Virus record (IMG/VR): IMGVR_UViG_3300045988_031537
DNA from: a virus
Taxonomy: Duplodnaviria; Heunggongvirae; Uroviricota; Caudoviricetes
Length of the DNA stretch: 44,853 nucleotides
Strand: one strand, 5' to 3'
The position numbers and the translations under genes are program-made. Below, piece by piece: positions 1 to 44,853 of the stretch (within the stretch, counting starts at the first letter, position 1; each line of letters opens with the position of its first letter). The notes below the pieces were generated by a model. That model was given only the letters and a program-made list of their open reading frames with translations, did no database searches and was not told where the DNA came from.

Positions 1-55
1 TACGGACTCACATCGGTGCATTCATACATATCTTTCATCCCAGCATCTCCGGTGA
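1..55. repeat. 55-bp terminal duplication, identical to 44799-44853 (circular or terminally redundant genome, or assembly overlap)
   Basis: Exact identity of the first and last 55 bases of the window. Confidence 0.9.
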
Positions 56-1165
56 AATAGTTAAACGTGCGACCTCGCCATATTCGGCGCTATAAGTAAT
101 TACATTCGCGCTACGGCCTGACATCCACCCGCCGCGCGAGGCGTAGGCGTCTTTAGCCGCTAAGGTTCGATGTTGCTCAACAATCATGTTACGGCTTTCT
201 ACAATCTTCTGATGGTGCAGGTGTCCTACATGGGCGTAGCTGTAAACACTCTCACCGAACGCTTTACGGAACTTGGCGATCATAACAGGCTCAATAGCGT
301 CGAAGCGTGCTTTATGCCCGTGGTGGAAGAACAGCGTCGTTTTGCCGTGTTGCACCATCTTGTAAACATCCGGCGACGTATCCACGATCACTCGGCTGTC
401 GTTTGAGTATAAAACCGTGAACATTTCGGCGAGCCATACGGAGCCGACGGGGTCGTGATTTCCTTGCACGATAAGCAAGCGAACATTTTTGTGCTTAACA
501 AGAGCCATATCAACAACACGACGCACCATACGAATCATGTAGCGAACTAGTTTCTGATAGCGAGTATCGGCGTCTAACACATGACGCGACTCAGGCGTAA
601 CGGCGTCCAGGCTATCGAAGTGCGCGAAGTCGCCAAGCAGGTTAATAACTCCAGTTCCTGCATCCGGCGCTTTCTGGAATGCCGCATCGAACCAGCGAGA
701 AAACAGGTCTTCCGCAATCTTCATATCCCAGTCGTCGCCACTCTCGTCGGCCCAGGCCAGCATACCAAGATGGAAATCAGATACAGTGTAAAGATTGAGT
801 AGTTTATCGTCACGTTTGGTGCGAACGGCTTTAACTGGTACAACGGGAGTAATCTCCGACTTCATGCCTTCGATTACGGCTTTCATCAACTCGACCTGAC
901 GTTCAGCGTCAGTGTCTGTCTTAACCCATTGCAACTTAGTGTTGCCGAACTCGTCCACAAGCGACGACGTTCCTTTAATCTTGTAGCCGTCAGGCACAAG
1001 GTGACTAACGTCGCGACCGTGGCCTACACCTTTCTTAGCCAGCTTCGCTTTACGGATACGGATAACGCGGTCTGAGATTCCGTATTTACGGGATATGTCG
1101 ATAATCTTTGTTCCGGCGTTCAATTCTTCCTGTAACTGTTCGTCGGTTATTTTAATCTGGGCCAT
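35..1165 (-). CDS. Calcineurin-like metallophosphoesterase (Mre11/SbcD-type motifs) with an N-terminal HTH-like domain
   Basis: Ordered motifs SDFHLG, GDFAHFD, GNHD, HHGH, GHLH; N-terminal ~100 aa looks like a DNA-binding HTH. Stop overlaps the start of ORF 44636-44836 across the junction (ATGA). Confidence 0.6.
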   Translation of the reverse strand: MAQIKITDEQLQEELNAGTKIIDISRKYGISDRVIRIRKAKLAKKGVGHGRDVSHLVPDGYKIKGTSSLVDEFGNTKLQWVKTDTDAERQVELMKAVIEGMKSEITPVVPVKAVRTKRDDKLLNLYTVSDFHLGMLAWADESGDDWDMKIAEDLFSRWFDAAFQKAPDAGTGVINLLGDFAHFDSLDAVTPESRHVLDADTRYQKLVRYMIRMVRRVVDMALVKHKNVRLLIVQGNHDPVGSVWLAEMFTVLYSNDSRVIVDTSPDVYKMVQHGKTTLFFHHGHKARFDAIEPVMIAKFRKAFGESVYSYAHVGHLHHQKIVESRNMIVEQHRTLAAKDAYASRGGWMSGRSANVITYSAEYGEVARLTISPEMLG

Positions 1166-1204
1166 GCTTTACTTCCTCGTGTTTAGGATTTGTCCTATAC
1201 TAGC

Positions 1205-1396
1205 TCACTTCTCTTTGACATTCGAGTTGCAAGCCCAGATTAAAATAAATACCCACGGCAGCAGAACCCAGCCAAGAAACAGATTGGCCATGAATATCGC
1301 TAATTTCGCTTTATGACCCCGCATATGGGCCACTAAAAACGGGATAAAATAAACTAAAACGATAATGATTAAGAAGAACATAGTAATACCTGTCAT
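1205..1396 (-). CDS. Small membrane protein resembling the superinfection immunity (Imm-like) family
   Basis: Internal ATG at 1396 preceded by AGGAG; product has ...YFIPFLVAHMRGHKAKLAIFMANLFLGWVLLPWVFILIWA, matching the YF.P..AH.RGH....NLFLGW..GW...IWA pattern of that family as I recall it. Upstream part of the track ORF is not protein-like. Confidence 0.5.
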   Translation of the reverse strand: MTGITMFFLIIIVLVYFIPFLVAHMRGHKAKLAIFMANLFLGWVLLPWVFILIWACNSNVKEK

Positions 1397-1438
1397 GGTG
1401 TAGCTCCTGTTTGAGTTAACATTGTTGGTGTAAGTGAA

Positions 1439-13852: not shown

Positions 13853-14140
13853 CTAACTATAATAGTTTGCTATTAGGTCGTCAACCTGTTTAAACGAACC
13901 AACGACAAAAACATTTGCACCGCGTTTACGCATCCGCTCATGCTCACGTAACTGGTGCGGGTCAGGCTTCGTGTTTTCGTCTTTCTTAACCTCGACGAAC
14001 CAGACGATGCCGCCGGGGAGAATTACCAGCAGGTCAGGGGCGCCGGAGCGCCCCTCGTACGAAAGTTTACGAACGAGGCCCCCCAGGGCCTCGAATCGCT
14101 CTTTTGCGTATTTCTGCACACGCCCCTCAGGCGTACTCAT
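13853..14140 (-). CDS. VRR-NUC domain nuclease
   Basis: GAPDLLVILPGG...VEVKK matches the VRR-NUC PD-(D/E)XK core. Confidence 0.7.
   Translation of the reverse strand: MSTPEGRVQKYAKERFEALGGLVRKLSYEGRSGAPDLLVILPGGIVWFVEVKKDENTKPDPHQLREHERMRKRGANVFVVGSFKQVDDLIANYYS
13856..13884 (-). promoter_or_regulatory. Sigma70-like promoter, TTGACG-N17-TATAGT
   Basis: Reverse complement reads TTGACG, 17-bp spacer, TATAGT; shares the CTAACTATAATAGT block with the 20647 promoter. Confidence 0.4.
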
Positions 14141-14225: not shown

Positions 14226-14353
14226 TCCGGCACCCACAGATAAATTGCGATGAACATACCCAATACGGCTACCATCATGCCGTATTGCCCCTCGTGACAG
14301 TAGACACCGGCGGCGAATCCCGCCAGTACCGCGATAATCAGTTTACTTAGCAT
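14222..14353 (-). CDS. Small hydrophobic peptide (43 aa)
   Basis: MLSKLIIAVLAGFAAGVYCHEGQYGMMVAVLGMFIAIYLWVPE; ATG overlaps the 3' end of the polymerase gene. Confidence 0.3.
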   Translation of the reverse strand: MLSKLIIAVLAGFAAGVYCHEGQYGMMVAVLGMFIAIYLWVPE

Positions 14354-17300
14354 AGCGCTTCATCTCCGCACCTTCCGCTACAAGAGGGAACCCCCCCGCC
14401 CACTCTGGCAACGCACACATTAATTTTTCCAGTTCAGGCACCGTGTAATCCGGCGTATCTGGAGTTTCACATACCAGTTCATCGTGTACCGAAAGCACGA
14501 TGGGATACCCGCCACCCTCAACATTAATCATCGCATATGCGAGTAAATCACGGCACAGCGCCTGAACAATGTTTTCGCAGGCTTTGCCGCCGTGTGTGTA
14601 CAGGGTAGTCCATTGGCGGGTTAACTGGTTTTCACCTTGGTACTTGATTCGCACATTCGTGTTTACCCGTCCGTCTTCGTCTGTTTCTTTTGTCACGCTA
14701 ACGCCGATTCCTGGATACGAGAGGATACGGCCCGACGGCAACTCCATACACAACCACCAACCGGGAACCTTCCTACCGGATGAATCGGTTTCTACTGTTC
14801 TCCAGATTCGGATAGCGCGCTCGCCATTCTTGCGCAGATGCGCCCCCGCCCAAAATTCACGACCCGGATTTCTTACAGCGGCTAAAATACCGTCTTTGAG
14901 GTCGCGCCAGAACGCTACTGTTTCCGGGTGTGACTCGCGCCACATACGCTTGATTGCATCGCAGGTGCGCCACACTTTCTTGTCCAGAATATACGACGGT
15001 CGGTCGTCCTTTTCACCTGGATGCGGGGGGTGCTTGGCTTCCTGGATGCGCGCCCACTCGTACCCGCGTGCAGTGGCCGACCAGATATGGTCCGGGAATG
15101 TACCGTCCATTGTTTTTGCCATCTCAATAAGGTCAAGACCTAGGTTTTTAGCAAACGTAACGAACGCTCCAACGCCGCCCTCGTAGCCGAGGCCAAGCTC
15201 GCAGTTATGCGCCACAAGAAAGCCAGAGTCTGAGGCTATAAGAAAACGGTTGCCGTCTTCCACATCAATCAGGTCGTACACCGGCTCGCAGTAGGTTAAT
15301 TTCCCGCTCAAGTTCAGCAATGCGGGCAACGGCTGCATCATACTTTCGTTGAAGCTCGGGTATTTGCCGTCTGTTTCGGCAGTTTTCAGAACGGCTGACA
15401 AACCGAATGTTTCCAGGTTCGTAGTTACCGTCTGTGTCGATTCTATCCATTTCGAGGTTCGGGTCATCCCAGCCTTCCAGAGTTTGAACATATCTAAGAA
15501 AAGACCTTTTATCAGTCCTCCACTGGTCGAATACCGTGATGCCTCTTGCCCCATAGTTTTTATAACCCTTATCCCTGGGGCTTGTTGTTCGCGTGATCGC
15601 CGCTGACAGCCGGTTGAGTAATCGCGTTCTGTGTGCATCATCCGGCATTGCGTCTTCGTAGCAGAAATACTGTTTACGATATTTTTTTGTTGCTTCAAGG
15701 GCGCAGCGGTTGCATTGAGTGGTTTTACCCGCTCTGACGTTGTCATAATAGACCCGCCCCGGCATCTCTCCGCAATCACATTGGACGAGTAGTTGTCTTT
15801 GGCCTTGTCGTTTTGGCAACTCGCGCAGGATAACCAAGCGTCCATACCTCTCTCCAGGGCTAGGCCCATCATATATCTGTTTGAAGCGAGTTGCTTTGCC
15901 TGCTTCCAGGAATGCGCCAAGATTTTGTGATCTTCGGTCATTAGCACCCCGTCCACATTTATTACCGGTTTCCACCCCATAAGGTGCGCGCCTTTTGTAT
16001 TCACCCATTTTTCACCGCTCCATACTTTATCTGTTGATGTAACCGCCATAATATCCTTAAATCCGCCATCGGTCAAAACCTGGGTATGACGGTGAAGGCA
16101 CGCTTTACCAATCTGGCGCAAGTCTTTACGTTCTTTCTTAATGTCATCAGGGTCCATACCGAACATCTTGCCTGCGGTTACACAGTAAATATCCAGTCCG
16201 GCGCGGAACGTATCGAGCGCGGTTTCTTCACCTGCCAGCCACGCAAGCCCGCGGCCTTCAACGTTAGAGTAATCGGCGACGACAAACTTATGCCCGGCTT
16301 CCGGTATTATGCAGCTACGCACAGTAGATGCCGTTAGTTTGGCTACATCAAAACGGCGATGGGCGCGGCCCTTAAGTAACGCTGAAATGCCTTTATCCAG
16401 CTCATCATCATGATAGTAACCGCGTGCCAGGTTCTGCGGCTGGAAGCCTTTACCTGCCCATCGCAGAGTACGTTTTGCCCCACCGTACTGCAAGCAACCG
16501 CGACGGCGGTCGTCCGAAGAGCGGCCCCGCAGCAGCGGGTTATATTTCGTGGACGCCGTGGACGCGGCCCCGAGGCGCATTTCGATAATCGTGCGTGCGT
16601 CGTCCGGTAAATCATCGTCGGCCAGCAGGTCATTCAGCGTTGACTTCTGCACGTTGTGGATTCGGTGCGCAGGGGCAAGTTCGCGCAGAATCGGCAGAAA
16701 GTCTTTACCAGTAAGCGAGCCGCCGTATTTGCGTTGGGCCTCTTCCTGTAACTGCGCTTTGTGTTTCTCCACGGCTTCAATCGCGGCTTCTGCCAGTGCC
16801 ACGTCAACCTTAAACCCGCGGTCGTTGATTAACTGGTCCAGTTCCAGTACACGGTCCTCGAACTCCGAGTTACCCCAACGTGGCAGCTTATGGAATACCT
16901 CACGCATCGCGGTAATATCGCTCACGGCGTACTTGATGAACAACGCCCATTCATCAGGGTGCGTCTCGGCGGTGTAGCGTCTGATTTTGTAGTTCTTCGG
17001 TGTCGGTTTAGAGAAACGCTGAATCAGCGCCTTGCCACGCTTATCCTTCGCATTGTCAGCAGACACGCCCAGCACTTCGCACAATGAGTCAAGTGAACCC
17101 GGCAATGCATGACGAAACGCCCAAATCATCGTATCAATGGTGTTGCGTACCGGAATATCAAAGCCCCAGCAGTGCTTCATTATGAGCCTGTCGAACATTG
17201 AGCCGTTGTGCCACACCATCTTAATGCGACTGTTAGGCTTAACCAGACGACGTAACGCGCGGTGCAAATCGCCCGGCATGTCACTGCCGTCGGTGCAATC

Positions 17301-17441
17301 CCACACCTGCACAGGCTCGTCGTCAAAAGCGTATGTACAGATAAGCACTTCGGTAGTTGGATGCTCGGCGTAAGCGTAGGAGCCGACTTTCTTTAAATCG
17401 GCTTCGGAGAATGTTTCAAAGTCTAAGAACAGGTAACTCAT
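14343..17441 (-). CDS. Family A DNA polymerase (3'-5' exonuclease plus polymerase domains) interrupted by an intein
   Basis: Exo motif DFETFS; polymerase motif A ADYSNVEGR, motif B RQIGKA/CELGLGYEGG split by the intein, motif C VHDELV. Confidence 0.85.
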   Translation of the reverse strand: MSYLFLDFETFSEADLKKVGSYAYAEHPTTEVLICTYAFDDEPVQVWDCTDGSDMPGDLHRALRRLVKPNSRIKMVWHNGSMFDRLIMKHCWGFDIPVRNTIDTMIWAFRHALPGSLDSLCEVLGVSADNAKDKRGKALIQRFSKPTPKNYKIRRYTAETHPDEWALFIKYAVSDITAMREVFHKLPRWGNSEFEDRVLELDQLINDRGFKVDVALAEAAIEAVEKHKAQLQEEAQRKYGGSLTGKDFLPILRELAPAHRIHNVQKSTLNDLLADDDLPDDARTIIEMRLGAASTASTKYNPLLRGRSSDDRRRGCLQYGGAKRTLRWAGKGFQPQNLARGYYHDDELDKGISALLKGRAHRRFDVAKLTASTVRSCIIPEAGHKFVVADYSNVEGRGLAWLAGEETALDTFRAGLDIYCVTAGKMFGMDPDDIKKERKDLRQIGKACLHRHTQVLTDGGFKDIMAVTSTDKVWSGEKWVNTKGAHLMGWKPVINVDGVLMTEDHKILAHSWKQAKQLASNRYMMGLALERGMDAWLSCASCQNDKAKDNYSSNVIAERCRGGSIMTTSERVKPLNATAAPLKQQKNIVNSISATKTQCRMMHTERDYSTGCQRRSREQQAPGIRVIKTMGQEASRYSTSGGLIKGLFLDMFKLWKAGMTRTSKWIESTQTVTTNLETFGLSAVLKTAETDGKYPSFNESMMQPLPALLNLSGKLTYCEPVYDLIDVEDGNRFLIASDSGFLVAHNCELGLGYEGGVGAFVTFAKNLGLDLIEMAKTMDGTFPDHIWSATARGYEWARIQEAKHPPHPGEKDDRPSYILDKKVWRTCDAIKRMWRESHPETVAFWRDLKDGILAAVRNPGREFWAGAHLRKNGERAIRIWRTVETDSSGRKVPGWWLCMELPSGRILSYPGIGVSVTKETDEDGRVNTNVRIKYQGENQLTRQWTTLYTHGGKACENIVQALCRDLLAYAMINVEGGGYPIVLSVHDELVCETPDTPDYTVPELEKLMCALPEWAGGFPLVAEGAEMKRYAK
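15204..16100 (-). mobile_element. Intein (299 aa) inserted in polymerase motif B
   Basis: Starts CLHRHTQVLTDGG (block A), has TEDHKILA (block B, TxxH), VYDLIDVEDGNRFLIA (block F) and ends LVAHN followed by Cys+1; codons checked at both junctions. Confidence 0.7.
15265..16008 (-). CDS. HNH-family homing endonuclease encoded inside the intein in a different reading frame
   Basis: Cys cluster CDCG...CNRC, AP2-like GYKNYGARGITVFDQW, HNH-like MDRIDTDGNYEPGNIRFVSRSENCRN; frame is -1 relative to the polymerase. Confidence 0.6.
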   Translation of the reverse strand: MGEYKRRAPYGVETGNKCGRGANDRRSQNLGAFLEAGKATRFKQIYDGPSPGERYGRLVILRELPKRQGQRQLLVQCDCGEMPGRVYYDNVRAGKTTQCNRCALEATKKYRKQYFCYEDAMPDDAHRTRLLNRLSAAITRTTSPRDKGYKNYGARGITVFDQWRTDKRSFLRYVQTLEGWDDPNLEMDRIDTDGNYEPGNIRFVSRSENCRNRRQIPELQRKYDAAVARIAELEREINLLRAGVRPD

Positions 17442-17500: not shown

Positions 17501-18127
17501 TTAACGGCGACGACGTTCGCGGCGCGGTGCTTCATCTTCTTCGTCGTCTTCCAGGTCACTAACACTTGCAGCAACTTTAGAACCACCAAACGCTTTACCT
17601 TCGCCGACGTATTTAATTGCCAGCAGGTTAACACCGAGGACTTTATATTTCTGGCTGAACCAGATTTCTACGCTTACGTTAGCAACGCAGCCACTGTAAA
17701 CCTGTTCACCTTCAATCTGTTCGCCGTCTACATTGAAGTCCTGCTCTACCTGAGTTTCGCCTTTTTTAGAGGTTACAATCAGCGGCTGTTTTTGTGCTTT
17801 CGCTTTGAAGTAGAAGCCTTCCGGGAAGTCTTCAAATGGATTGTCTCGCTCGGCAATGTCTTTAATCGCGCATTTATCCATGTGCTTACCTTCGCCGTAG
17901 TTTGACTTCATCCACTTCTCGGCAGCGGCTGCACCTAACGCTTCTTCAACCACAGCGTAAACAGTATCGTATAGCGCATCGATTTGAGCATGGTCAGACG
18001 GCAGGATTATAGTCGCGCTGTACTGGCCTTTAGTGATGGAGCCATCGTCGTTTTCACGGTCTTTTTCGCGTTCGAATACGTTAACCCAGGCAGTGTTTAC
18101 TTTACGCAGATTCAGCTTAATACCCAT
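17501..18127 (-). CDS. Putative ssDNA-binding protein (DUF2815-like) with acidic C-terminal tail
   Basis: Position and composition within the polymerase/nuclease module; acidic tail DLEDDEEDE. Confidence 0.5.
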   Translation of the reverse strand: MGIKLNLRKVNTAWVNVFEREKDRENDDGSITKGQYSATIILPSDHAQIDALYDTVYAVVEEALGAAAAEKWMKSNYGEGKHMDKCAIKDIAERDNPFEDFPEGFYFKAKAQKQPLIVTSKKGETQVEQDFNVDGEQIEGEQVYSGCVANVSVEIWFSQKYKVLGVNLLAIKYVGEGKAFGGSKVAASVSDLEDDEEDEAPRRERRRR

Positions 18128-18216: not shown

Positions 18217-19458
18217 TTATTCCAAATCTTCTTCACTAACCTGATTCCACTCAGGCCGTTTGTCGTCTGCCGTTGTGATGCATGGGGCACCTGGTTTACG
18301 TGTGATGAAGTCTTTCAGTTCTTCTTCCGGCACAACTTTAACCGCTTCGGTCGGCGTCATGAGCACTTCTTTAGTCAGCTTGTCGCCGTAGAGTTCTGTT
18401 ACTTTCTCCGCGTCTTTCCACGCACGATTGCCCATCTTACCTTCAACCAGCTTGTACCCAGGAACTTTCTTACCGGAATGCAACGCGGCAGCCATAGCTT
18501 TCTCAACCTTGTCGATGTGCTGGCGCAACAACGGCAACTTCTCGTACTCAGCTACGAGTTCCTCCGGCGTAAGTTCCAGCGCAAAGTCGTCCTCCAGTTC
18601 TTCCGCCAGCACCGCGTTGACGGTTTTTGTACGCGCGGCGCACTGCTCTGAGAAACGGCACCATTGGCAACCGTCGACAGACGGCCTGAAGTCCGACGCT
18701 TTCAGGTTCTTTTTACCACGGAAATACGCATCAAGAGCTAACAGCGCCCGTTTCTGCGCAAACTTAGCGAACAGTTCCAGACCTTCAACCGAGATGTCCC
18801 ACTCCGACGCGCCGCCAGCGTATGGCTGAAAGATGACCAGACGAACGGTTGTTATGTTATAACGTCTCTTGAGTCGGCGATAAACACCTAGAGCGTAGAG
18901 CATAAGCTGCTTGTTTTCTTTCGCTTCTACACGATGCCGCCCGGTTTTCAGGTCGCCAATAATCAGCATGTGCTCGTCGGTGTTAGCCAGTTCCTGAACG
19001 GCAACAAGGTCAGCGGTTCCGAACGTCTCAACGCCTTCGTAACCAGGATGCAACACCTCAGTAAGATTTACCCGCATCTCGAGCTTGGCATAAGTCGCTA
19101 CGTCTATAATCGCTTTGCAGTAGTCGGTGTACTTTCGCACCTGCTCAATCATGTCCGCCGTAATCAGTACCGCGCCTTTCATCGGGCTGATTAGCGCCTT
19201 AATCTGGCCTTTACCCTCATCCAGCACGTAAGCGCCAACTTCACGCTCTAACGGCAACGCAGTGCCGCGGATATAGGCGTTGAGATGGACTTCAGCTATG
19301 GTGTGGCACGCTGTCCCCGTAACGGCGGATTTACCCGACGTGTTAGGAATATCTTTTTCACAGGCCAGTGATGCAGCGCATGACAGCCATTTTTTAGCAC
19401 CTGACGGCGAAAGTAAGGCGTGAACATCGTTATTGCCGCCGCGTTCTTTTAGAATCAT
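18217..19458 (-). CDS. PD-(D/E)XK exonuclease with C-terminal cysteine cluster (Cas4/RecB-like)
   Basis: GTADLVA...IIGDLKTG...QLMLYA nuclease motifs and CQWCRFSEQC cluster. Confidence 0.65.
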   Translation of the reverse strand: MILKERGGNNDVHALLSPSGAKKWLSCAASLACEKDIPNTSGKSAVTGTACHTIAEVHLNAYIRGTALPLEREVGAYVLDEGKGQIKALISPMKGAVLITADMIEQVRKYTDYCKAIIDVATYAKLEMRVNLTEVLHPGYEGVETFGTADLVAVQELANTDEHMLIIGDLKTGRHRVEAKENKQLMLYALGVYRRLKRRYNITTVRLVIFQPYAGGASEWDISVEGLELFAKFAQKRALLALDAYFRGKKNLKASDFRPSVDGCQWCRFSEQCAARTKTVNAVLAEELEDDFALELTPEELVAEYEKLPLLRQHIDKVEKAMAAALHSGKKVPGYKLVEGKMGNRAWKDAEKVTELYGDKLTKEVLMTPTEAVKVVPEEELKDFITRKPGAPCITTADDKRPEWNQVSEEDLE

Positions 19459-20739: not shown

Positions 20740-20955
20740 ATGCAACCATCTGAACTAGGCATCCGTGTAGAAAAACGCCGTAAAGAACTCGGCATCTCCC
20801 AGCGCCGTCTGGCGGTGCTGACCGGGGTTTCCCAGGGCGCAATTAACCAGCTGGCACTTGGGGTAACCCAGGACGTCCGCCCGGCAACGCTGTTTAAACT
20901 GGCGGAAGTGCTGGAGGTAGACGCCAAGTGGCTGGCGCTAGGTGAAGGGGCTTAA
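20740..20955 (+). CDS. XRE-family (Cro/CI-like) HTH transcriptional regulator
   Basis: LGISQRRLAVLTGVSQGAINQL helix-turn-helix; AAGGAG RBS; the only plus-strand gene inside the replication block. Confidence 0.7.
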   Translation: MQPSELGIRVEKRRKELGISQRRLAVLTGVSQGAINQLALGVTQDVRPATLFKLAEVLEVDAKWLALGEGA

Positions 20956-20972: not shown

Positions 20973-23213
20973 CTACTCCAAATCCTCCTCTGTCACCACC
21001 AGCATTTCATTCGGTTCGTATATTGTCTTCGGTCTTAATCTGTCGCCCATCTTTTCCGGTATCCTGTATGTGCCCGGTATAACTTCACCGTTAACATCAC
21101 ATCCAAGCATCAACTCACCGTCTTTCAGCATCTTCTCGAGATGGTGGTTGGTGATAGCGTGGTCGCCAGAGTTCGCCACTATCTGCCGTTGGGTAAAACC
21201 GCGTCCGGTGTCGTCGGCCTGCTGCAGGTCTTCCAGCGCGGCGAGTATTGATTCCTTACGCCCTTCATCCTTCCCGCGTTTTACAGCATTCTTTACGTTT
21301 TCTTTACCTTCTTTCGTCAGCCCTTCTTCCCGCTCTTTCTCCTCGTCAGTTTTGAACGGCTCGAAGCCCCACGGCATCAGCACAAGTGCCTTATGTGGTT
21401 CTGGCAGGTCGAGGTTTACGATTGTGCCGTATTCCTCTGTGCTACCCAGGAACTCAACAGCACGGTACTCTTTCGGCGGTGGCGCTTCGCGGAACTGTAC
21501 CGACTCCAGCACCATGCCAACCGTTTTCTGTTGGGGCCCGTGCTTAAATTTAGAGTGGTATACGTTTATCTGACGGTCGGTCGCGCGTTCAATTGTCAGT
21601 TCCACGTCGACGCCAGCATACAGCGCACCACTGCCGCGGGCTTTCTTTCCACCTTTCGGCGTATGGTGGACAACGCCTACTGCGGCTTTAGTCACGTCAC
21701 GTACTTCTTTCAGGATGGCAATGACTTTACCCATGCCGATTGCCGTCGATGAACTGTTCTCGTCGAACTTATCAATCGTCAAAGCCAGGGTCTGGTTTAG
21801 GGTGTCGAAGGCAACCATGCCGATGGGTTCGTCACCCGCAGTTTCACGCATCAACTTAATAAGGCTTTTCAGTTTTCCGACTTCGCCCATGTCGATGACA
21901 TGTACATAATCTTTACCTTCCTCACCATATTTAGCCGCTAGTGCGTCAATACGTGTGCGTGTAGCCGCGCCACCCTCACCGTCGATATAGAAGTGATGGC
22001 AACGCTGGGTGTCCGCCCCGGCGAACCGGTATCCGGCGGCGCTCAGGTACATCATCCCCAGCGTATAGAATGATTTGTACGTGCCGGATTCCCCGACAAT
22101 ATCCCAGATGCAATCTGACGGCATATACCCTTCTACGACGAAATCAGCCTTTACCGGTTCCGGTAGCTCGTCCTCCTCGGGGTCCTCGTCGTCTTCCAGG
22201 TCGTCGAGGCTGCATGAAACAGATTCACGTGCGCCCCAGCCGATAGCCTCAGCGACTTCACTGAACGGGAGACCAGTCGCATCACACGCATATTTCCACA
22301 CCTCTTTCGGCGACATGCCTTCGGTTGCCGTAATGTCAGTGTCGTGGATCATGGTTACGTTCGGCGCTTCGTAGCCCTCGCGCGGGAAGCACAGCAGGAA
22401 GTCGTCCGGGCGCGGCGTAGGGTCGCTGTAATTTTCTGCATGTTCCGGCGTAGCTGGCATCTTAAGGCCGCGGGGCGTCATAACACCGCCGTACTCAAAC
22501 GCCAGCGCCTCAAACGCATCAGTAAACGCGGTACGCAGTTCTTCTGGTATCTGGTAGTCAGATGCGCTGCTCACCTCGTAATCCGGGATGCCTTCCAGTA
22601 ACTCTTCCGGGTCAATCAGGTCGTTTCGGCGCGACCAGATAACGGTAGAGCCAACCGGCGGCAGGTACATAGGCTGCGACAGAGTGAAACCGCTGCGGTC
22701 CGCGCCCATGCCTTTGAAGAAGTGTTCCAGCAATCCATGGCGAACACGGATGATGTCTCCACCTTCAACCGGGCGGCCCAGCGGCATGACGACGCGAAAG
22801 CGTGGTGACTCATCGGTATGGGATGCCGTGGTGTAGAGGCACATAGCCAGGCGGCTGCGCTTAACCAGGCGCACAGCTTCCTGATACTCTTCCGGTGTTG
22901 CACCGTCGAAGTCCAGATAAGCGAGCGACGATTTGCTTACAGACGCGTCACAGCGATAGAAGAAGCCTTTACGCGCCCGCTTAAAGTCTCCTGTTTCCGG
23001 GTCTTTTACGGTGCTGTGTGTAGAGTCGCACGCAGCGGTGATATACCCGGGCGCGGTCTTAGGGTTAATCCCATCACGAACGGCATCGAGTGGCTGGATT
23101 AGCTCTTTCAGGTCGTCCAGTGTTGCCGTGTGGGTGGTTCTGACGTTTATATCCTTTTTCTCTGCCGGCGCGTTGCGACGAGACCACGAGTAGGATAAAA
23201 TTACATCGGACAT
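20973..23213 (-). CDS. Primase-polymerase / RecA-like helicase replication protein
   Basis: N-terminal prim-pol-like region (LDFDG) and C-terminal P-loop GESGTYKS. Confidence 0.7.
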   Translation of the reverse strand: MSDVILSYSWSRRNAPAEKKDINVRTTHTATLDDLKELIQPLDAVRDGINPKTAPGYITAACDSTHSTVKDPETGDFKRARKGFFYRCDASVSKSSLAYLDFDGATPEEYQEAVRLVKRSRLAMCLYTTASHTDESPRFRVVMPLGRPVEGGDIIRVRHGLLEHFFKGMGADRSGFTLSQPMYLPPVGSTVIWSRRNDLIDPEELLEGIPDYEVSSASDYQIPEELRTAFTDAFEALAFEYGGVMTPRGLKMPATPEHAENYSDPTPRPDDFLLCFPREGYEAPNVTMIHDTDITATEGMSPKEVWKYACDATGLPFSEVAEAIGWGARESVSCSLDDLEDDEDPEEDELPEPVKADFVVEGYMPSDCIWDIVGESGTYKSFYTLGMMYLSAAGYRFAGADTQRCHHFYIDGEGGAATRTRIDALAAKYGEEGKDYVHVIDMGEVGKLKSLIKLMRETAGDEPIGMVAFDTLNQTLALTIDKFDENSSSTAIGMGKVIAILKEVRDVTKAAVGVVHHTPKGGKKARGSGALYAGVDVELTIERATDRQINVYHSKFKHGPQQKTVGMVLESVQFREAPPPKEYRAVEFLGSTEEYGTIVNLDLPEPHKALVLMPWGFEPFKTDEEKEREEGLTKEGKENVKNAVKRGKDEGRKESILAALEDLQQADDTGRGFTQRQIVANSGDHAITNHHLEKMLKDGELMLGCDVNGEVIPGTYRIPEKMGDRLRPKTIYEPNEMLVVTEEDLE

Positions 23214-24102: not shown

Positions 24103-24131
24103 TTGCACACCCCAACATAATAGGATACTAT
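24103..24131 (+). promoter_or_regulatory. Sigma70-like promoter, TTGCAC-N17-TACTAT
   Basis: Consensus-like hexamers; about 30 bp nearly identical to the promoter at 1439-1467. Confidence 0.5.
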
Positions 24132-35411: not shown

Positions 35412-35535
35412 AGTATATCTAGTAGCTAGCTTTGGTCGGTGAACTACTAAAAATAGAGAAAGAATATAACCCCATGAAGGTATGCCTATCTCTGGCATCG
35501 ACCAATCTTCATGGGGTTTTCTTATAGGGTTTAAT

Positions 35536-36105
35536 ATGGGAATTGTTTTTGGTGTGGGTATTAACGATGTTTCACCAATAAGTTGCGGAGGGGTGCATAT
35601 AGCGTCCTACGCCGTATGGAAGAACATGTTAAAGAGGTGCTACGACAAGAAATGGCAGCAAAGAAACAGAACTTATATAGGTTGCCGCGTGTCGGACGAT
35701 TGGTTGGTGTTCAGTAATTTCAAGGTCTGGTTTGATGATTTTTATGTACCTGGGTGGCAGATAGATAAGGATTTACTTAACCCGGGAAATAAGGTTTACG
35801 ATGCTTCTAACTGTGTTTTCATCCCTAAATCCCTCAATACTTTCCTAACAGCCCACGACGCTCTTCGAGGCGAACACCCACTCGGCGTACATTTCCATAA
35901 ACAAAAGAAAAGATTCATCGCTCAAGTATCCGTGGATGGCGTATCTGAACAAATAGGCGCTTACGAAACCGCTCAAGAGGCACACGTAGCATGGTTTCAT
36001 AGAAAAATTGAATTAGCATATGAATACAAAGGTCTTTGCGATAGCATAGACCCACGCCTTTTCGAAGGCGTCTTACGTAAGATTAACTCAATGAAAGAGG
36101 TTTAG
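35536..36105 (+). CDS. HNH-AP2-like homing endonuclease, possibly degenerate
   Basis: AP2-like GVHFHKQKKRFIAQVSVDGVSEQIGAYETAQEAHVAW; HNH-like GWQIDKDLLNPGNKVYDASNCVFIPKSLN with Lys where His is expected; preceded by a 12-bp-stem hairpin at 35468-35517. Confidence 0.5.
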   Translation: MGIVFGVGINDVSPISCGGVHIASYAVWKNMLKRCYDKKWQQRNRTYIGCRVSDDWLVFSNFKVWFDDFYVPGWQIDKDLLNPGNKVYDASNCVFIPKSLNTFLTAHDALRGEHPLGVHFHKQKKRFIAQVSVDGVSEQIGAYETAQEAHVAWFHRKIELAYEYKGLCDSIDPRLFEGVLRKINSMKEV

Positions 36106-36167: not shown

Positions 36168-36569
36168 GTGTCTGGCTCTGGTGAGAACGTGGTGTTTATT
36201 GAAGACGAAAGTGTACTAGGTACACCGGTAGATGATATGCCGTTTGCAGATAAAACCGGTATCGCACTCCCTGCGGCGGGTATGCTTTACGAGGTTCCGT
36301 ATCTGGCTGACGCTGGAGATGTGTATTTCTCTGTACAACCGCAGGGCGCTGAACTGGCGGACGGAAGTGCGACTATCACTGTCGAGGTTAAGGCGGGTAA
36401 AGCGCCGTATGTACTGACCTGGTACAAAGACGGGAAGGAAGTGGTGAACGCCCCGGAAGAGGCTCTGTCTCTGACTGTTAATGCGGCGGGTGAATACTTC
36501 GTTAAAGTTACTGATGCCGATGGCGTAGAGACGGTTAGCAAGGCGGCGAAGGTTACTAAGCCAGAATGA
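36168..36569 (+). CDS. Ig-like domain protein
   Basis: PYVLTWYKDGKEV...AGEYFVKVTDADG resembles Ig/Big-type domains. Confidence 0.45.
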   Translation: MSGSGENVVFIEDESVLGTPVDDMPFADKTGIALPAAGMLYEVPYLADAGDVYFSVQPQGAELADGSATITVEVKAGKAPYVLTWYKDGKEVVNAPEEALSLTVNAAGEYFVKVTDADGVETVSKAAKVTKPE

Positions 36570-36571
36570 TA

Positions 36572-36597
36572 AAAGGCCCCATAATGGGGCCTTAGTT
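36572..36597. terminator. Bidirectional terminator hairpin
   Basis: AAGGCCCCAT-AA-TGGGGCCTT between convergent genes. Confidence 0.55.
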
Positions 36598-37119
36598 TTA
36601 TTTAAATCGCGCAGGCATTAACACCATAAAGGCCGTGTTTGAAAATTGTATTTTGCATCCTCTGGTTTGGTCCTGGAAATCAAAACGAGCAATTTCATTT
36701 TTGTATGCCTTAGAAATCTTGTACGCGTCTGCCAAATAACGCAGGGTGAACCCTATACTATCGACAACACCCGGTGTGATGTGCGCCACGCGTCTCCAGT
36801 CAGGAAAGTTTCCTTCTACAACATCTACCGGAAGTGTACATATAAGCGCACGATTATCGTCATAGAAAGATACACTGCCGTTGTCGTGGTTTACCTCCGC
36901 GTAGTTAAATTTAGAAGGCTCTCTCCCTTTGATGTCTATGAGAGTCCCTTTCTCAACGTTGGTCTTCACATTGTCGCAGAACAATCTATGACCGTCCGTA
37001 GACACTATCAATCCTTCAGGGTCTATGTAAAAAGCGTTCAAATAGTAGCGAACATCATTTTTAGCCCTGCATATTTTCGCCCCTACATACGCAGGGAAAG
37101 TAATTACTGTAGTAACCAT
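36598..37119 (-). CDS. Truncated DNA polymerase III beta sliding clamp (DnaN)-like protein
   Basis: NDVRYYLNAFYIDPEGLIVSTDGHRLF and EGNFPDWRRV match E. coli DnaN domain II (QDVRYYLNG...VATDGHRLA; DGRFPDYRRV); C-terminus AFMVLMPARF resembles YVVMPMRL. Only 173 aa versus about 366 for DnaN. Confidence 0.6.
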   Translation of the reverse strand: MVTTVITFPAYVGAKICRAKNDVRYYLNAFYIDPEGLIVSTDGHRLFCDNVKTNVEKGTLIDIKGREPSKFNYAEVNHDNGSVSFYDDNRALICTLPVDVVEGNFPDWRRVAHITPGVVDSIGFTLRYLADAYKISKAYKNEIARFDFQDQTRGCKIQFSNTAFMVLMPARFK

Positions 37120-37146
37120 TTCTCATCTCCTGTTTAAGTTAACTGA

Positions 37147-37175
37147 ATAGTACCCTATTATGTTGGTGCGCGCAA
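37147..37175 (-). promoter_or_regulatory. Sigma70-like promoter, TTGCGC-N17-TACTAT, for the clamp-like gene
   Basis: Same family as the promoters at 1439 and 24103. Confidence 0.45.
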
Positions 37176-37448
37176 ACTATTTATTTACGTATTCCAGTTA
37201 TTCCACTCAATTGTAAATGTTGGAATAAACTATTCGAATATTTGACTTTTCACTAAAAATATGATAAGCTCCACCTGAGCTTGTGAAGTATGAGCAAGCG
37301 ACCGCGGCGCGGCAGGTAACGGAGCTGGACGTAAGTCCTGAGTGTAGTTACGCTGACGCGTTCGGAAGGGCCATACTCTATTGCTTGTGTAAAAAGTAAC
37401 TGGTTTACTGAGATTACGCCGTTTCTATGTTTAAATGATAAGGACTAG

Positions 37449-37475
37449 CGCCCCGCTTTAAGGCGGGGCTTTACT
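37449..37475 (+). terminator. Terminator-like hairpin
   Basis: GCCCCGC-TTTAAG-GCGGGGC followed by TTTACTTAT. Confidence 0.45.
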
Positions 37476-44646: not shown

Positions 44647-44836
44647 GGTTAACTCTCTTAAATCGGGCTATGCCTGACTCGTTAATGCTGCCTATTTCAA
44701 AGAAGCTGCGATATTTAGGCGAATACATTCTTACGTCGCCGTTCTCTAGGGTTACCCCTTCATATACAGCGCCTACTTCGAATCCATTTTTCTCCGCGTA
44801 CGGACTCACATCGGTGCATTCATACATATCTTTCAT
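44636..44836 (-). CDS. Hypothetical protein (accessory island)
   Basis: 66-aa ORF; start lies in the terminal duplication and overlaps the stop of the phosphoesterase gene across the junction. Confidence 0.4.
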   Translation of the reverse strand: MKDMYECTDVSPYAEKNGFEVGAVYEGVTLENGDVRMYSPKYRSFFEIGSINESGIARFKRVNRDK

Positions 44837-44853
44837 CCCAGCATCTCCGGTGA
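44799..44853. repeat. 55-bp terminal duplication, identical to 1-55
   Basis: Exact identity with the window start. Confidence 0.9.

Follow-up and report, generated by a model that had tools for sequence, protein, structure and literature searches.

An Escherichia coli siphophage encodes, antisense within its head module, a 173-aa truncated relative of the bacterial sliding clamp (here called mini-beta; 36598..37119, minus strand) in which the pocket that receives clamp-binding motifs has been retained and the interface through which the clamp ring is closed has been lost. Reading from sequence and predicted structure, I would give a probability of roughly 0.4 to the view that this protein is a pocket module working off the ring, where it would bind clamp-binding motifs and, most likely, act as a decoy for proteins with which the host replicates and repairs its DNA. 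Replication and repair in bacteria both have the beta clamp as their central hub, and this same pocket makes it an antibiotic target. Should the reading be right, mini-beta would be a minimal monomeric pocket of 173 aa, useful as a reagent for screening and structural work, and it would stand for a phage strategy that was not found in the literature, namely competing for the clients of the hub instead of inhibiting the hub.

The window, meaning the whole 44,853-nt stretch of DNA that was analysed, holds the entire genome of a Kagunavirus (a K1G-like E. coli siphophage of the Guernseyvirinae) and is 96.8% identical to vB_EcoS_fPoEco01 over the 2 kb tested. The perfect 55-bp direct repeat at its ends (1-55 = 44799-44853) indicates that the genome is whole, with an overlap that is either terminal or due to assembly. 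Upstream of the mini-beta locus come the terminase, portal, head-morphogenesis and HNH genes; the locus itself is flanked by a Hoc-like head-decoration gene (36168-36569, plus strand) on one side and by the spanin, scaffold and major capsid genes (from 37494, plus strand) on the other, and the preliminary description of this DNA had both the position within the structural module and the antisense orientation right. The ATG is preceded, at a distance of 7 nt, by the Shine-Dalgarno sequence AGGAG (37127..37131, minus strand). A 207-aa ORF (35482-36105, plus strand), called a 'putative HNH endonuclease' in the closest relatives, separates the head-morphogenesis gene from the Hoc-like gene, and as it is missing in phage Ivi it confirms this part of the head module as an insertion hot spot. 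On the other side of mini-beta, about 230 nt of non-coding DNA (37240-37470, plus strand) separate its cassette from the spanin gene, are kept in phage K1ind3 and end with a strong hairpin-plus-T terminator (37450-37469); this stretch could be a small RNA or a leader, and Rfam returned no match for it and nothing meaningful around the cassette.

A clamp fragment that keeps its pocket

Curated profiles barely register this protein. The Pfam model PF02767 scores 17.2 bits where the cut-off is 27, the DnaN N-terminal and C-terminal domain models of Pfam give no match, and TIGR00663 reaches 20.3 bits, far under its family threshold of 137.65, and mini-beta is therefore not a DnaN in the sense of a three-domain protein of about 366 aa scoring above curated cut-offs. 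The preliminary description had nevertheless taken the product for a truncated DnaN and had proposed profile searches, structure searches and structure prediction as checks, and this identification holds up: although the profile scores stay under cut-off, a phmmer search of PDB chains retrieves E. coli beta (E = 3.7e-5), aligning mini-beta 16-116 with beta 144-252 and 117-171 with beta 312-365 and reproducing all of the motifs that had been aligned by eye. An AlphaFold2 model of mini-beta alone, built with 53 homologs, is very confident (pLDDT 95.1, pTM 0.91) and shows the repeated beta-alpha-beta-beta-beta motifs of the clamp fold, superposable on beta. Foldseek places it among beta clamps: each of the best 50 hits in the PDB is a bacterial clamp of this kind, with E. 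coli supplying nearly all of them (E 4e-8; TM 0.65-0.69 on the query), in alignments of about 255 columns that imply a gap of about 80 residues. Mini-beta is a truncated relative of the bacterial sliding clamp, with a calculated pI of 8.3 against 5.25 for E. coli beta.

E. coli beta has 366 aa, and in a global alignment mini-beta begins at beta 128, the start of domain II, runs to 247 and picks up again at about 312-366, so that it comprises domain II and, from domain III, the second of the beta-alpha-beta-beta-beta motifs. As the preliminary description had it, domain I is absent; that description had also counted most of domain III as lost, of which the first half (beta 253-311) is missing and the second half is kept. 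In the beta dimer, I78 and F106 pack on I272 and L273, and K74, R96, R103 and R105 form ion pairs with E298-E304 (PMC11139829); every one of these interface residues falls in beta 1-127 or 253-311 and has no counterpart in mini-beta. A further loss lies inside domain II, where the model has no helix between strands 59-63 and 73-77, the expected place of the second helix, one of three channel-side helices. This helix is present in a 191-aa relative (P0042, residues 67-76; model pLDDT 91) and in family members of 190-220 aa generally, and is missing from the Kagunavirus version, which is among the shortest, suggesting that the channel lining is being shed while the pocket stays. As far as the models go, the lost helix and the lost interface argue against a closed, DNA-encircling ring of mini-beta; as the helix is missing along with domain I and the first half of domain III, the protein should be able neither to encircle DNA nor to join a ring of beta.

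What remains is the site through which clamp partners dock. In E. coli beta, subsite I of this pocket comprises R152, L155, T172, G174, H175, R176, L177, P242, R246, V247, V360 and M362, and subsite II comprises H175, N320, Y323, V344, M362, P363, M364 and R365 (PMC11139829). Mini-beta is identical to beta at 15 of these 18 pocket positions (T41, V111, M168 and P169, for instance, are the equivalents of T172, V247, M362 and P363) as compared with 40 of the 136 other aligned residues (29%; Fisher p = 1.5e-5). The same columns stand out within the family, with a mean consensus frequency among 53 members of 0.81 for the pocket and 0.42 for the rest (Mann-Whitney p = 3.5e-7), and pocket residues account for 13 of the 25 most conserved columns; pocket residues are the most conserved in DnaN too, so part of this signal is inherited. 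The three substitutions (N320 to T125, V344 to T152 and M364 to A170), together with an invariant W at the place of beta Y244, mean that ligand specificity may have shifted. Judging from known clamp architecture, three elements would form the pocket, namely the 242-247 linker and one motif each from domain II (its first) and domain III (its last), in which case the surviving part of the clamp is the pocket and its immediate scaffold. Among the roles that the preliminary description had floated, engagement of clamp-binding proteins is thus the one that these sequence comparisons favour.

A side observation concerns longer homologs (P0044, P0053, P0059 and P0069), in which a C-terminal extension follows directly after the pocket-lining MPxR strand (alignment columns ~255-292) and carries a conserved L-P-x-W motif; this could fold back into the pocket as a tail, or serve as a motif for binding a partner.

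A mobile cassette with an early-type promoter

Comparison with phages that lack or relocate it shows that mini-beta travels as a promoter-gene-terminator cassette, or moron, of about 600 bp (36591..37189, minus strand). K1ind3 has 17 bp in place of the cassette and no mini-beta homolog anywhere in its genome, and yet it shares the replication module. In fBC-Eco01 a 97% identical cassette sits between the portal and head-morphogenesis genes, a slot that is also used in phage 26 (cassettes in this slot are 88-98% identical) and, judged by match position, in Sciku, Shashou, SHAK7693 and NRG857CP3. The whole cassette is found in 24 of the 118 records matching any part of it, while in the other listed records the match is limited to about 75 bp covering the promoter and 5' leader (37111-37187), with different cargo behind it; elsewhere the cargo in the cassette slot is an N6_N4 DNA methylase (Jerseyvirus S100), a 67-aa protein (Bas75) or two small ORFs (fBC-Eco01). 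The GC content of the cassette is 42.9%, compared with 50.7% for the window.

Morons are promoter-gene-terminator insertions, defined for HK97 and HK022, and the classical ones are expressed from prophages. The mini-beta cassette resembles them in being an autonomous opposite-strand unit between two conserved late genes, with its own predicted promoter and terminator, a lower GC content and presence or absence among close relatives; it differs from them in residing in a virulent-type Kagunavirus and in having a promoter that appears to lie within the early regulon of the phage itself.

The predicted promoter (37147..37175, minus strand) has a -35 box TTGCGC (37175-37170), a 17-nt spacer and a -10 box TACTAT (37152-37147), and is a weak sigma-70 match that a generic scan missed. 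It belongs to a recognizable class, since it has a second copy with 3 mismatches at 1466-1438 on the minus strand (0 expected by chance), where the wider 36-nt element recurs at 1466-1431, promoters of the same class occur at 24118 and 25345 on the plus strand, and a PHIRE 'phage promoter' is annotated on the homologous sequence of fBC-Eco01. Overlapping its spacer and -10 box is a palindromic, operator-like motif, TAATAGGGTACTATTC (37145..37160), whose core, TAATAG-N4-CTATTC, recurs at about 12 sites in the window (1436, 5484, 13860, 18188, 20651, 20695, 24118, 25345, 28930, 34328, 37145 and 37984), giving 17 strand matches where 1.28 are expected. The palindrome usually lies within the spacer or -10 box of sigma-70-like promoters, and at 13860, 18188 and 20651 it occupies the spacers of near-consensus promoters (TTGACA, 17 nt, TATAGT) facing the helicase, SSB-polymerase and exonuclease operons. 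By virtue of this common motif, mini-beta would share an operator-type promoter with the early and replication genes, which agrees with the early-type promoter proposed in the preliminary description. A phage regulator, of which the 71-aa HTH protein encoded at 20740-20952 may be a candidate, probably uses the palindrome as its operator. The terminator that had likewise been proposed was located by a terminator scan at 36573..36593; it is intrinsic and bidirectional, with a 9-bp stem containing 6 GC pairs and T-runs on both strands, and would serve both mini-beta and the Hoc-like gene.

The window holds a second antisense island, in the tail module (35-1399, minus strand), encoding a putative superinfection-immunity protein and a DNA-repair exonuclease and apparently driven by the same 36-nt promoter-like element.

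Family, selection and replication neighbourhood

Mini-beta fits a short phage family of beta-like proteins, phrog_3007, which it matches over the full profile length (E 3.6e-36, residues 13-172) and with which it shares a 170-220-aa architecture. By tblastn, homologs occur in 223 phage records from Kagunavirus, Cornellvirus, Dhillonvirus, Roufvirus, Skarprettervirus, the Burkholderia Naesvirus and other phages of Salmonella, Klebsiella and Proteus. Homologs measure 168-234 aa, and the short 'DNA polymerase III beta' family is also found in Pantoea, Serratia and Gordonia phages and includes gp15 of Bcep43/Bcep781. Searched against 1.84 billion representatives, the family profile recovers 304 clusters (50% identity) at E <= 1e-30, the best 150 of which measure 141-254 aa and nearly all cover almost the whole profile, and in BFVD many phage proteins of 160-240 aa share the fold (TM-scores 0.81-0.87). 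The dN/dS of the gene is 0.19 against XY2 and 0.13 against phage 26, and in comparison with Ivi and fBC-Eco01 there are 0 nonsynonymous changes alongside about 4.5% synonymous differences, a pattern by which the gene is under purifying selection.

The homology to clamps is itself already in the databases and the existence of the gene is not new, which makes the novelty less than the preliminary description implied: GenBank names run from 'DNA Pol III b subunit fragment' (Bcep43 gp15, the first) to 'DNA polymerase III sliding clamp' and 'beta clamp domain-containing protein', and one genome paper calls the fBC-Eco01 homolog 'the' sliding clamp that tethers the polymerase. What was not found in the literature is the anatomy of a kept pocket and a lost ring, the cassette behaviour, the early-type promoter bearing an operator, and the decoy or adaptor hypothesis; a search for functional studies of short phage beta proteins likewise returned none.

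A lone antisense gene in the head module is also the arrangement in Dhillonvirus TheodorHerzl, in Cornellvirus and in the Burkholderia myophage Bcep43. In Skarpretter, the homolog shares an operon with primase-helicase, Band_7, dUTPase and Dam genes, and in Roufvirus it comes after a ParB-like gene. Temperate prophages of Klebsiella, Salmonella and Citrobacter carry a homolog (42% identity) as the first gene after a CI-like repressor, followed in the operon by a DUF2800/PD-(D/E)XK exonuclease, an Enc34-type SSB, Band_7 and a family-A polymerase, with cro and a Prim-Pol/VapE gene in the divergent operon; this prophage version had no DNA match across 5,426 complete E. coli genomes. Three distant metagenomic homologs are surrounded by small early genes and adjoin Prim-Pol, DUF5906/VapE, DNA_pol_A and DUF2800 genes in varying combinations. 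Set beside such relatives, the Kagunavirus gene is a mobile head-module cassette and not a replication-operon gene, and all of the phage contexts examined encode parts of their own replication module, most including a family-A polymerase.

These polymerases are related end to end: compared with the polymerase of Ivi, that of the prophage has 39% identity (E 4e-164) and Bcep43 gp61 27% (E 2e-43), and two metagenomic polymerases match it at E-values of 2e-38 and 5e-24. The Bcep1-like viruses form a separate group of family-A polymerases (Kazlauskas and Venclovas, 2011), to which the mini-beta-linked clade would correspond. The link runs one way, in that a related polymerase is present in 1,270 phage records and mini-beta in 223 (about one sixth).

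The polymerase of the window (14343-17441, minus strand) has 1032 aa as opposed to 746 aa in Ivi, owing to an in-frame insertion of about 300 aa (~15165-16100) that starts with C-L-H, ends with VAHN|C and is intein-like; related Salmonella phage genes are named 'intein-containing DNA polymerase precursor', and in a distant metagenomic polymerase (L017) this site is likewise occupied by an insertion.

Clamp-binding motifs were searched for in all window ORFs of at least 50 aa, with the strict pentamer allowed anywhere and looser forms at the termini, and replication proteins, both those of the window and those of one prophage, were also screened with the consensus forms given in a review. The replication proteins of neither the window phage nor its prophage relative contain a canonical motif under these searches, and the sole match among window ORFs, an internal QADLF in the tail terminator, is taken as chance. 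What the replication proteins do share is an acidic C-terminal tail, V[ST]EEDLE, on the exonuclease (18217-19458, minus strand) and the helicase-primase (20973-23213, minus strand), with DLEDDEEDE near the end of the SSB (17501-18127, minus strand) and matching D/E-L-I tails on the exonuclease and SSB of the prophage relatives, which suggests one common docking partner in the replisome. The tails were considered as ligands of mini-beta and rejected, being unaltered in K1ind3, where there is no mini-beta.

A proposed decoy for clamp partners and its rivals

The mechanism I favour would start from mini-beta as the smallest piece of a clamp that may still form the hydrophobic pocket for peptides of the QL[S/D]LF type, made from its own operator-controlled promoter alongside the early and replication genes and binding clamp-binding motifs away from the clamp. 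The likeliest consequence would be competitive sequestration of host clamp partners, the candidates being clamp-loader delta, Pol III alpha and epsilon, Hda, Pol II/IV/V, MutS/MutL, ligase and Pol I, so that host replication and repair would be damped while the phage would copy its DNA with proteins of its own (a clamp-independent family-A polymerase, a helicase-primase, an SSB and an exonuclease). What makes delta attractive as a target is that its binding to monomeric beta is about 50-fold tighter than to the ring (PMC11139829). With no canonical motif in the phage replication proteins, a canonical ligand of mini-beta would have to be a host protein, and it is this, together with a pocket nearly identical to that of the host and an accessory cassette that shares its slot with a methylase, that makes a decoy the most likely role; moreover, phages that encode parts of their own replication module can afford to disturb host clamp traffic. 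The accessory behaviour of the gene, absent from K1ind3 and placed in a hypervariable slot with a DNA methylase as alternative cargo, belongs to the same picture. Against the decoy count, besides the inherited part of the conservation signal and the altered pocket positions, two further points: a replisome subunit would explain just as well why the gene is so often linked to the family-A polymerase, DUF2800 exonuclease and VapE primase-helicase, and stoichiometric titration requires high expression, but the promoter is a weak sigma-70 match. I would advance only tentatively the more specific proposal that a soluble, ring-less copy of the pocket is deployed early to pull clamp-binding proteins off the host clamp, and with similar reserve the corollary that such a decoy amounts to host takeover or anti-repair through mimicry of the hub and not through its blocking. 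Two copies might also associate through the exposed half-domain, giving a dimer with two pockets.

Phage inhibition of the host clamp has a precedent in Twort Gp168, which plugs the DNA channel of beta (PMC8565349). Under the decoy reading both phage proteins would be aimed at host clamp function, but Gp168 is unrelated in sequence, and mini-beta would imitate the docking site and compete for the partners of the clamp.

The alternative that survives best, although I consider it somewhat unlikely, is that mini-beta is an accessory subunit or adaptor of the phage replisome, whether by binding the polymerase, helicase-primase, exonuclease or SSB through a non-canonical motif, by serving, in the manner of herpesvirus UL42, as a tether or processivity factor that forms no ring, or by recruiting ligase, Pol I or other clamp partners of the host to the Okazaki fragments of the phage. 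The synteny with family-A polymerases in other lineages, the operator common to mini-beta and the replication genes, and the basic pI all speak for it. Yet the gene is dispensable, being missing from close relatives with the same replication genes and from about five of every six records with a related polymerase; the phage replication proteins have no canonical clamp-binding motif, their V[ST]EEDLE tails persist unaltered in K1ind3, and one of the three channel-side helices is gone. The comparison with UL42/UL44 cuts both ways as well. On the model, mini-beta is like them in having a clamp fold without a closed ring, a raised pI and no clamp loader in the genome; those proteins, however, have two full domains and are essential polymerase subunits, whereas mini-beta has 1.5 domains, is dispensable, stands closer to beta than to PCNA and has no polymerase tail motif that could be found. 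Knowing the correct function would also throw light on the interplay between the host and family-A polymerase replisomes that have no clamp.

A role linked to defence, in which the pocket neutralizes clamp-directed toxins or effectors, or blocks recruitment of MutHLS/RecBCD on unmethylated phage DNA, seems improbable to me. It would make mini-beta the anti-defence equivalent of the methylase found in the same slot, behind the same promoter, in Jerseyvirus S100, and the neighbouring Dam and ParB-like genes of Skarpretter and Roufvirus and the accessory-gene distribution point the same way; but this is an argument from location, PADLOC defence models gave 0 families at E <= 1 for mini-beta, and support in the literature was not found.

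The preliminary description had further speculated that a half-clamp could heterodimerise with the host clamp, and a poison of this kind, pairing with monomers of host beta or capping an open ring and so blocking closure or loading, is very improbable. Homology to beta and the retained beta-sheet edges, which could in principle pair with other sheets, leave it some room, but both halves of the interface are deleted (I78/F106 with domain I; I272/L273 and E298-E304 with the first half of domain III), and the faces exposed as a result would not, going by known clamp architecture, be the complementary ones of the ring. Finally, the phrog_3007 label 'RusA-like Holliday junction resolvase', which has spread as a product name to many GenBank records (e.g., PQ429079.1 and NC_048112.1), can be set aside together with a decaying, non-functional fragment (the untranscribed remnant that the preliminary description had allowed for), because no RusA Pfam model matches at E <= 10, the fold is that of a beta clamp, Bcep43 has a separate true Rus protein, gp22, besides its gp15, and a dN/dS of 0.13-0.19 and a large intact family of 304 clusters argue against decay. 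A correct function would clean up many of these annotations.

Natural truncation of a clamp from its N-terminal side is not peculiar to phages. Skaliter, Paz-Elizur and Livneh reportedly described in 1996 a UV-inducible, internal-start product of dnaN, beta*, comprising domains II-III and said to form a ring-like oligomer that supports Pol III. Mini-beta, like beta*, begins at about domain II, but unlike beta*, with its whole domain III, it lacks half of that domain, and it belongs to a separate, anciently diverged gene family. On plasmids, homologs are either full-length beta-like genes or partial matches beneath hypothetical proteins; one of them (L022; plasmid NZ_AP018396.1, 146118-147395) is a 425-aa full-length, divergent beta-clamp homolog adjoining dinG, and such plasmids, which are large, conjugative, of the MOBH type and found in Enterobacteriaceae, have rdgC and Dam methylase genes near the clamp homolog.
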